UHGV virus genome: UHGV-0130101
DNA: 17,225 nt
Direction: 5' to 3' (one strand)
Origin: a virus
Part shown: positions 6,001 through 9,000 of the stretch, one piece after another
Position numbering within the stretch: the stretch's first letter is position 1
Layout of the letters: every line of letters starts with the position of its first letter
Made by a program: the position numbers

Positions 6001-9000
6001 TTGGTTTCTCCACAAAACAGAGAAGAACACCTGCGGTGGCAGCCGCCCGGATGGATTGGGTTATGAGCCCGTCGTCCGGTGATGCTCTTCTCTGTTTTGT
6101 AAAAAGAGCGGTACCAGCCGGAAGCAAGTGTACAAACTGGTACCGCCAAAGCAGTGGCTGTTGTGGTGACCGGTGCTGATCTCCGGCTTGCGGTTATTTC
6201 AGACTCTCACGGGCGTTTAATTGCCCCGCCGAACAGCTCTTTTCCGCATTAGCTGCAATGTCTTTCGCGCATCAGCCTGCGCATTCACCACAACGCTGAG
6301 AGCACTTAGCCAGTTACGGCACCACACTTTGTCGCGGTTCCATAAATGCCCTCATCGTTGCACCCTGGTCTCTTCCCAGGTGTCAAACCGAACCGCCACG
6401 CTGGTTAGGCGTCTTATCAGCATCATCATTGACTTGCACATTCCGGCTACCTGGTTTGTTTGCCCGAGCAAGGAGTGGATTGTCCCCTTTAACGTCCCCA
6501 GACCGCTAACGACGCATGTGCCATACGCCGTGTTACAACCAAATTTTGTTTAATCTTGCCTGTGATATGTTTCTTTTAGATACATTATGTATCTCAAGGG
6601 TACATTGTCAAGTATAAAAAAACCTGCCGAAGCAGGTTATAAATATTGATTAGGCCTTTATTTTGTATCTTCTTGGTTTTCCTGAGAAAATTACTGTACC
6701 AATTATAGAGCAATTACCGTTGATCTTAATGTAAGGTTCAGGCCAGTTTGGGTTTAATGCTTTGAGGTAACGCTGTGTTCCATCTTCTATCAACCGCTTA
6801 AAGGTGGTTTCGCCTGTATCGTGCATCAATGCAATAACGTCGTCACCGTGGCAGGCAGGGACTTCAGGATCGACAAAAATCATGTCTCCCGGGCGGTACT
6901 CATCAATCATTGAATCACCAATCACCCGCAAGATATAAGTCATTTCGCCACAGGGTACAGGGCAGGGATAAGTTTCTGCTGTGCTCAAATCAACCTCAGA
7001 ATAGCCAACTTCTTTCCATGCTCCGGCCTGTACCCATGATATGACAGGGACTAACGTTATTTGTTTGTTAGTAATTGAAACATCAGGTTTTTTTGTGATG
7101 TTTGTTGTCTGGTGTTCTTGATCAAGCCATCCGACAGGCAGGTCGAAACATTTTTCGATGTGCCGTGCCATGCTGTCACCGATATTTTTAGTAGCACCAT
7201 CTCCCATAAACCTGCTGGTCTGGGTTGGCTCGCGATCAATCATGGTGGCAAAGGAAGAATTCCCGCCAACACCATCTCTCAGTTTTCTGGCGTTAGACCG
7301 CCGGATGTCATGGACTGTTTTCATAACGAAATTAAAACCTTTGTACCGATAGGGTACAAGTATCTTGAAGGTTCATCTTAATCATGTAATATGTATATCG
7401 GAGGTACATATTGTATGAAAGCGTATTGGGACTCTTTAACCAAAGAACAGCAGGGCGAGTTGGCCGGAAAAGTTGGCTCAACACCAGGCTACTTACGGCT
7501 GGTTTTCAATGGTTATAAAAAAGCCAGTTTTGTGCTGGCTAAAAAACTTGAGCAATGCACGTCAGGTGCAATTACGAAATCTGACTTAAGACCGGATATC
7601 TATCCGAAAGATTAACAGAACACCTTCAATTTTTAACCACAGAACGATGAGGCTAACCGTGGGTAAGCATCACTGGAAAGTAGAAAAACAGCCTGAGTGG
7701 TACGTGAAAGCTGTCAGAAAAACTATCGCGGCGTTGCCGGGGGGTTACGCTGAAGCTGCTGAGTGGCTGGATGTAACAGAGAACGCTTTATTCAACCGCC
7801 TTCGTGCAGATGGCGATCAGATTTTCCCGCTGGGATGGGCAATGATTTTACAGCGCGCGGCTGGCACTCACTACATTGCGGATGCTGTCGCACAGTCTGC
7901 TGGTGGGGTGTTTGTATCGCTTCCTGAAATTGAGGAAGTAGAGAACGCCGATATAAACCAGCGCCTGCTGGAAGTCATCGAACAGATCGGGAGTTACTCA
8001 AAGCAGATTCGTTCGGCAATCGAAGATGGGGTAGTGGAGCCACACGAGCAGACAGCAATTAATGATGAGTTGTATCTGTCAATTTCGAAGCTCCAGGAGC
8101 ATGCAGCACTGGTCTACAAAATCTTTTGCGCTCCAGAAAAGAGTGACGCCCGCGAGTGTGCAGCTCCGGGCGTCGTGGCGTTTTGTGTCTGTGGAGAAAC
8201 TAACGCATGAACAGTTTAACGGCAAATAACCGTTTGTCGCAACAGCTGGTGGTCAGTGTCGCTGAACACCTGTTGTTACGGCATGAATGCAGATTACCAA
8301 ATCACCTGGCTGTAAGTAACCACAGAGAACTTTACCTGACTGTGGGGGGCGAGTTGTGCAGGAACTTAACCGCTGGTTTCGTGACGGAAGAGGGCTTTAT
8401 GTCCATGTTATTCGTTGGGAACCAGAAACACAGCGCGTTATCTATCTTCGCAAAGACTACCCGCATGAGTGCTTTAGTCCTTTGTGGAAATTCAGGCGTG
8501 ATTTTGTTGAGTGTGAAGGACCACCAGCACATTGATTCTGCCATTCCGGGACGTTACACTGTTCAGGCACCTTATAAAACGGGTGCCGGGCGTGGAAACC
8601 CGGAATTCACCAAAGCGCACAACCGCGCTCTTGCGGTTTTTTTGTGTCATGAGCAGCATTACGCCCAAATTATGGTGGGGCGTGCAGGGCCAACTTCGGT
8701 TGGGCCGGGTTCTTTGGTGACCGGTATTTCCACCCCTGTACGTCTCACCACCAATAAGGTCGTGGAAAGCCTTGGTGGTGAGTTATTAAAAATCACCAAA
8801 GAGGCTGCCATCATGGCTACGATCCCAACCCTCACTCAACCTGAAATTGCCATCGTTGATGGTCAGGCTGTTACTTCATCCCTGGCTGTTGCCAACTTCT
8901 TCTCCAAACGTCATGACGATGTACTGAAAAAGATCCGCACGCTTGAATGCTCAGCATCATTCACTGCCCGCAATTTTTCGGTGAGTGATTACACTGATTG

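Follow-up and report, generated by a model that had tools for sequence, protein, structure and literature searches.

IsrK and C4 RNA genes within a long open frame ahead of a Rha-type gene in an Escherichia coli lambdoid prophage

Control of an antirepressor by small processed RNAs is known from P4, P1, N15 and Gifsy-1. Here, we describe a lambdoid member of this group, made of known parts in a known arrangement, that is found in UHGV virus genome UHGV-0130101. The stretch of DNA analysed (17,225 nt at its full length, referred to throughout as the window) is the early-right region of an Escherichia coli lambdoid prophage. The feature under study is an open reading frame (ORF) of 383 codons at 8207-9358, which ends in a gene for a Rha-family regulator and whose first 202 codons contain two RNA genes and the sites with which they can pair.

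In P4, transcripts from an internal promoter are terminated early via interactions that involve the CI RNA and seqA, and this yields CI (PMC10111431, summarising Forti et al. 1999). Kil is translated upon read-through, and full-length Eta is made only from the transcript of the upstream promoter, coupled to the upstream gene; translation of Eta blocks the termination (PMC10111431). In Gifsy-1, IsrK is made from a promoter of its own, ends in a leaky terminator and is followed by a processed RNA, STnc1160; orf45 starts at +107, expression of AnrP needs translation of orf45, and IsrK was recognized by the Gifsy-1 authors as a structural homologue of P4 seqA (PMC4825925).

The immI region of P1 and P7 includes a C4 RNA of the same Rfam family as the one in the window, and in these phages it is cut from the leader of the operon. 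As in the window, two segments of this RNA complement upstream sites and the ribosome site of the first translated gene, and specificity alleles exist. The scheme a1, b1/a′, b′/a2, b2 used below is also that of the P1 annotation. However, P1 has a c4-a1b1 element in place of IsrK with its terminator, and its C4 targets the ribosome site of icd, with ant coupled behind. In the window, unlike in P1, site a′ is located in the junction of C4, and loop 1 is simply a tetraloop, UUCG or GAAA. No long ORF runs across c4 in P1.

We consider it probable, at roughly three chances in four, that the stretch described here is a secondary-immunity control leader of a Rha-type antirepressor, built like eta/kil-CI-seqA of P4, c4-icd-ant of P1/P7 and IsrK-orf45-AnrP of Gifsy-1. 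The features concerned are listed here, with the strand in brackets.

7647-8210 (+): YmfL/CII-like regulator gene (Pfam Phage_CP76, 8.5e-15; phrog_101, CII-like activator)
8207-9358 (+): long stop-free frame of 383 codons, with nested in-frame ATG codons at 8672 and 8813
8356-8535 (+): gene for a DUF4222 small protein of 59 amino acids, GTG start, in another frame than the long ORF (PF13973, E = 9.5e-14)
8532-8560 (+): predicted sigma-70 promoter of IsrK (TTGATT 8532-8537, 17-base spacer, TACACT 8555-8560)
8567-8643 (+): IsrK/P4 seqA-type small RNA (Rfam RF01394, 67.9 bits, threshold 50; model positions 1-77 of 77)
8672-8674 (+): ATG in the 5′ stem of C4, in frame with Rha and with no stop between
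8673-8750 (+): C4/P4 CI/Salmonella STnc1160-type antisense RNA (Rfam RF01695, 83.6 bits, threshold 45)
8762-8768 (+): target site a2, the complement of a′ (duplex -9.1 kcal/mol)
8793-8803 (+): target site b2, the complement of b′, overlapping the AGAGG of ATG 8813 (11-bp duplex, -15.0 kcal/mol)
8813-9358 (+): gene for a Rha-family regulator and putative antirepressor, nested short form of 181 amino acids (PF09669, 4.9e-31)

The two RNA genes and their pairing sites

The match to the C4 model extends from 8668 to 8755 and covers model positions 1-87 of 87. The fold consists of a 17-bp closing stem enclosing two hairpins (-44.5 kcal/mol), with site b′ (8710-8720) in the loop of hairpin 2 and site a′ (8727-8733) in the junction. 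In IsrK, site a1 (8592-8598) is in the loop of hairpin 2 and site b1 (8607-8615) is single-stranded. IsrK ends in an intrinsic terminator found by the terminator scan, a hairpin at 8621-8638 with a seven-T run at 8637-8643. This hairpin had been noticed in the original prediction, which was made from the sequence alone and offered a structured non-coding region, for example an RNA or a tR1-like attenuator, as one of three options for 8207-8812. Of these, the RNA option came closest, as shown by the Rfam matches to IsrK and C4 and by the co-variation described below.

Two candidates were set aside. A lambda tR1-like attenuator was rejected as the hairpin is that of the IsrK terminator, and no evidence for a nut/N system turned up, though none was sought. 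The 3′ end of C4, ...CACCACCA, is present in the window and prompted a search for a tRNA or tmRNA, of which ARAGORN found none.

The pairing sites were examined in 58 distinct modules, aligned from viral contigs that were harvested by their conserved C4 stems. The C4 helices are paired at 100%, 99.7% and 100%, with ten pairs changed on both sides. Between C4 and its targets, 9 of the 11 pairs of b′-b2 have changed on both sides, with 91% of cells paired, and the same is true of all nine pairs of b1-b′ (97% of cells) and of six of the seven pairs of a1-a′ (99% of cells). The covariation score was not reached by any of 500 shuffles, and slid registers pair just 39-48% of cells. The a′-a2 helix is only 59% paired in the MAFFT alignment, where there is a 3-base register gap, and an alignment-free check found a complement of a′ both in IsrK and downstream of C4 in 57 of the 58 modules. 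There are 24 alleles of b′ and 9 of a′ among the modules. The triple co-variation is already visible by eye in an alignment of close relatives, and the IsrK-C4 tandem was found in nine related lambdoid, P2-like and N15 loci as well as in P4. In the window itself, the remaining duplexes have energies of -14.6 kcal/mol (b′-b1) and -8.9 kcal/mol (a′-a1), and the energy of b′-b2 was reached by 2 of 500 shuffled loops.

The predicted promoter ends 7 bases ahead of IsrK model position 1, and transcription would be expected to start near G8567. Its hexamers are kept at equal spacing in three unrelated sequence types, that of the window and two others, and it aligns with the P4 region upstream of the IsrK/seqA-like match, a region that we take to be the PLE promoter. 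Given its position, conservation and alignment with P4, 8532-8560 may function as a promoter.

Further arrangements of these elements were seen. Three tandem IsrK-C4 cassettes with different a and b specificities are present in L046 (9643-11210, -), and two in L084 (7739-8650, +), where they are ~655 bases apart, a spacing as in L046. Each L046 cassette, and the one L084 cassette examined, is followed by a Rha-N-like gene of ~120 amino acids. These tandem cassettes look like an array of immunity specificities. In L109, a second IsrK-C4 module comes straight after a Rha gene (at ~-186 from the ATG in the C4 5′ stem), and the junction falls inside the start of an ORF (ATGATCCGGAATATTTTC...) that is, in the window, the 74-amino-acid ORF downstream of Rha. 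The arrangement illustrates mosaic reshuffling at IsrK-C4 modules. When the Rha leader is considered alone, GGUGGUGA (8779-8786) pairs with UCACCA (8793-8798) in a cis hairpin that covers b2 and is beside the Shine-Dalgarno sequence (window 8777-8805); GGTGGTGA is near-invariant across modules. The cis hairpin is possibly a counterpart of the alternative structures reported in Gifsy-1.

The long frame and the DUF4222 gene

The main outline of the frame is as originally described. ATG 8207 overlaps the ymfL stop codon (TGA, 8208-8210) as ATGA, and no stop is encountered before the end of the Rha gene. The Rha N-terminus is at ATG 8813, which is preceded by the Shine-Dalgarno sequence AGAGG (8800-8804), and the Rha domain starts 21 residues past this ATG (PF09669, 107.6 bits, cut-off 29.9; TIGR02681, 103 bits, cut-off 45.95). 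The further claim that the stop-free run is too long to be due to chance is in agreement with first-order Markov resamples, in which the given frame is open over 202 codons in 0.085% of cases. The amino acid composition of the leader is odd in that Asp, Glu and Lys together are low (0.10 vs 0.14-0.22 in most window genes). However, rare codons, said to be many, are only slightly increased (0.079 vs 0.056).

Comparison with related loci extends this. The long frame is open in all ten close relatives, which include relatives with very different IsrK/C4 alleles and relatives with another downstream gene, and the indels among close relatives are all multiples of three. From the start of IsrK up to the nested ATG, the 58 modules have no stops in the long frame vs stops at 27 and 25 distinct positions in the other two frames, many of them within the hypervariable b sites. 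If stops fell evenly across the three frames, none out of 52 would have P ~7e-10, a figure that is our own arithmetic and treats events that are not fully independent. Across DUF4222, the long frame is open in 26 of 28 DNA variants, and only ~4% of synonymous recodings of DUF4222 leave this (+1) frame open. A degenerated gene, another of the original options, is at odds with a frame that appears to be actively kept open in the ten relatives and the 58 modules.

In-frame start codons are also found at set places. The motif ATTATGGTGGG at ATG 8672 is invariant across the 58 modules. In unrelated upstream contexts, an in-frame ATG is located 51-57 bases before the IsrK start, in some cases with GGGAGG seven bases upstream, and in the window this site is occupied by GTG 8513.

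The layout of P4 is closely similar. There, an ORF at 8168-8812 (-) overlaps the stop of ORF88 by ATGA and runs over the sequence with which the predicted promoter aligns, then over the isrK-like element and the CI RNA. Nested within it, in the same frame, is an ORF whose start, ...GGAGGCTGCCATCATGGCTAC..., is nearly identical to that of Rha. ...EAAIMAT... and the order Shine-Dalgarno sequence-ATG-GCT-AC at the nested start are common to both. On this likeness in position and layout, the long frame would be the counterpart of P4 eta. The differences are that the ATG at the shared motif opens an ORF of 65 codons in P4, which we take to be kil, and the 181-amino-acid Rha regulator in the window; that the first ATTATGGTG of P4 is separated from the CI stem by an additional ~80 bases; and that the window element resides in a lambdoid prophage, where the module follows a cII-like gene and the long ORF also crosses the DUF4222 gene in another frame.

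The original statement that there is no alternative ORF on either strand was incorrect. Both the DUF4222 ORF (8356-8535, +), which had gone unnoticed along with the internal promoter, and an ORF of 70 amino acids (8332-8544, -) are present, the latter with no family match. The DUF4222 stop (TGA, 8533-8535) sits within the -35 hexamer of the predicted promoter, and the NCBI pipeline calls the DUF4222 ORF in the near-identical E. coli loci L016-L018. Substitutions over 8359-8532 were counted between the window and Salmonella phage F1055 (L003), an Stx1a phage (L006) and an e14-type phage (L013), and are given here as the share of changes at DUF4222 third positions, followed by the synonymous:nonsynonymous counts in each frame.

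L003: third positions 13/19; DUF4222 frame 12:5; long frame 0:16
L006: third positions 28/41; DUF4222 frame 23:9; long frame 3:30
L013: third positions 35/68; DUF4222 frame 19:21; long frame 3:37

These counts indicate that purifying selection acts on the DUF4222 frame and not on the long frame. Over 8567-8812, the synonymous:nonsynonymous counts for the long frame are 0:21 (L003) and 5:47 (L006), and the changes per codon position (10/11/6 and 30/30/35, respectively) show no bias. The substitution comparison also found no codon periodicity in 8207-8355, and the first 120 residues of the long frame have no match in NCBIfam and nothing meaningful in Pfam. Such a comparison of synonymous and nonsynonymous change across related phages had been suggested as a check with the original prediction, and its outcome is a long frame without amino acid conservation. 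As changes are mostly nonsynonymous and show no codon-position bias, the long frame encodes no conserved protein. Because stops are absent from 58 modules while the amino acids drift, we conclude from these alignments that it is the openness of the frame that appears to be selected, and not the sequence of the peptide.

Two further observations concern this frame. A strong Shine-Dalgarno-like sequence, GGAAGAGGG, is found 4 bases before ATG 8399 (window 8386-8401), a codon of the long frame that is located within the DUF4222 gene; this sequence is not kept in L006 or L013. In a P2-like group (L010, 1944-2561; L052, L073, L081, L127 and L128), two extra bases ahead of the nested ATG put it out of frame; the leader frame is nonetheless open for 100-220 codons more, across the next gene, and in P88 it ends overlapping the start of the following gene. 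In this group, an ORF of 76 amino acids competes with the leader-frame ORF as the possible real gene.

Readings of the open frame as protein or as RNA

Three other explanations of the open frame were considered. The product of 383 amino acids could be a true two-domain protein that consists of an 'Ash' N-terminal domain (PF10554, Phage_ASH) fused to Rha and acts as such. PF10554 matches residues 117-201 above its cut-off (45.6 bits, cut-off 26), PHROG families 821, 995, 3960 and 6928 model the fusion, databases label the long ORF as Rha, antirepressor or peptidase, and the frame is kept open. However, the segment matched by PF10554 is exactly that of the two RNA genes, and the substitution counts against L003 and L006 given above, with no third-position excess, reveal no purifying selection on amino acids in this stretch. 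The residues that vary are the RNA specificity sites, and they co-vary as base pairs. In P4 (L139), PF10554 likewise hits the obsolete 'cI protein' ORF over the CI RNA (8168-8584, -). We therefore regard a two-domain protein as very unlikely, and the novel N-terminal domain envisaged in the original prediction is not borne out by a frame whose amino acids are not conserved. The PF10554 match is best read as a conceptual translation of IsrK and C4. We note that P4 epsilon (L139, 7888-8175, -) matches PF25738 rather than PF10554, that a published survey of P4-like satellites took PF10554 as the epsilon marker, and that a paper on Stx phages treated Ash as a protein domain of unknown function.

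The first ~100 codons might instead be a real gene of the type of ymfM, the cell-division inhibitor gene of e14, that has lost its stop and become fused to the leader. With e14-type YmfM as the query, tblastn found 35% identity in the long frame (E = 3e-10), the start at the ATGA overlap is MNSLT in both, phrog_1170 matches residues 47-98, and expression of ymfM is reported to cause SOS-inducible filamentation (bioRxiv 10.1101/2020.11.19.390815). However, as that study cloned the whole ORF, the ymfM and DUF4222 frames are not separable as the source of the active product. An overlap of ymfM with a DUF4222 ORF in the other frame is found in L013 (1771-2129), L014 (1771-2129) and e14 of K-12 (L140, 671-1029), and the corresponding segment of the window is 8207-8535. 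The similarity to YmfM is located where DUF4222 overlaps, and there the changes are synonymous for DUF4222 and almost all nonsynonymous in the YmfM frame, so that the annotated frame was not found to be conserved (35% identity; the long-frame counts of 0:16, 3:30 and 3:37). Substitution patterns thus support the DUF4222 frame in the e14 overlap. In addition, 8207-8355 is without codon periodicity, YmfM has no Pfam match and the overlapping ORF has one, and the NCBI pipeline annotates the DUF4222 ORF, not ymfM, in a K-12 derivative. A fused ymfM gene is thus hardly to be expected here. That the region is purely RNA, untranslated upstream of 8672 or 8813 and open only through chance and inheritance from a single ancestor without stops, is less far-fetched but still unlikely. 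From the start of IsrK to ATG 8672 there are only 35 codons, the region 8536-8812 is open in 7.8% of Markov resamples, the modules have common ancestry, and in the P4-like C4 class (79-83 nt) there is a stop one codon ahead of the ATG. What this leaves unaccounted for is that none of 52 distinct stop positions falls in the long frame, even in the hypervariable b1, b′ and b2, that the observed indels are all in frame, that unrelated contexts repeatedly have a start codon shortly ahead of the promoter, that the frame is open through DUF4222 against an expectation of ~4%, and that the layout matches P4 eta.

A proposed control leader and its implications

Under the preferred reading, that of a control leader for the Rha-type antirepressor, the internal promoter would fire constitutively in the lysogen and most transcripts would end at the IsrK terminator. 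Read-through RNA would be processed into C4, with RNase P as the enzyme expected for RNAs of this family, and C4 bound to a2 and b2 would block translation from ATG 8813 and would probably promote termination too. IsrK carries decoy copies of the targets and could titrate C4; this would be in line with the reported activation by IsrK in Gifsy-1. In the lytic state, translation of early-promoter transcripts would begin at GTG 8513 or, by coupling to the ymfL stop, at ATG 8207, and ribosomes would pass through the promoter, both RNA genes and the target sites. Neither the terminator nor the C4 pairings could then form, and the long form of Rha and the downstream genes would be expressed regardless of C4. 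Translation of the leader in this state would explain why stops are selected against while the amino acids drift.

Taken further, the whole interval between the cII-like stop codon and the antirepressor in lambdoid prophages might be a ribosome track, read across an active promoter, two RNA genes and a DUF4222 gene in another frame. The absence of stops would be its only selected coding property, and through such a track early-promoter transcripts would override the IsrK terminator and repression by C4. The annotated YmfM of e14 and the 'Ash domain' would then be by-products that have no protein function of their own. We put this forward tentatively, as a proposal with somewhat short of an even chance.

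Gifsy-1 is both like and unlike the window. In both, an AUG is located ~106 bases from the IsrK start (ATG 8672 in the window). However, the orf45 stop overlaps the anrP AUG in Gifsy-1, whereas the equivalent ORF of the window continues without a stop into Rha, in the same frame. The two also differ in their place, near antQ in Gifsy-1 and in the early-right operon in the window, and the published Gifsy-1 model does not include the a/b target logic of C4.

Several points weigh against the control leader as proposed. According to the Gifsy-1 authors, IsrK activates by binding a long mRNA and not by titrating a C4-like RNA, and over-expression of the orf45/STnc1160 segment did not relieve IsrK toxicity in Gifsy-1 (PMC4825925). 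The predicted promoter agrees with the consensus at 8 of 12 positions and was not called by a default-threshold scan of 7300-9500. There is no obvious Shine-Dalgarno sequence at GTG 8513 or ATG 8672, and translation from ATG 8207 would have to cross the DUF4222 gene, which is read in another frame. Finally, the stop-free state is in part inherited, as the modules are related.

The wider context is that of an early-right region, with two regulatory genes upstream of the YmfL/CII-like gene.

6650-7324 (-): S24 repressor gene
7391-7615: Cro-like gene

The long frame is followed, in order, by the ORF of 74 amino acids, a gene for an HTH/DnaD-N-like protein, which is labelled 'replication protein O' in related phages, a PerC-like gene and Dam. 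In near-identical loci, the counterpart of 7647-8210 is labelled ymfL. The query is 100% identical along its length to E. coli B1W1; identity is 99.5% with phage phiSTEC1575-Stx2k and 99.3% with mEp460 over 8532-8830.

The main additions made here to what is known of such leaders are that the frame appears to be selected just for its openness and that the 'Ash domain' appears to be a translation of RNA genes. The labels 'Rha/Ash' fusion, 'ash family protein' and 'peptidase' in Stx and other lambdoid phages would mostly span a promoter and two RNA genes, and PF10554 should be reconsidered both as a P4 epsilon marker and as a protein domain without a known function. More generally, selection can act on the openness of a frame and not on its protein, and this bears on how coding and non-coding regions are called. 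The a and b sites, with at least 24 specificity alleles, would represent a heteroimmunity code that is readable from sequence, and the IsrK and C4 RNA genes would control the antirepressor and hence prophage induction, Shiga-toxin phages included.

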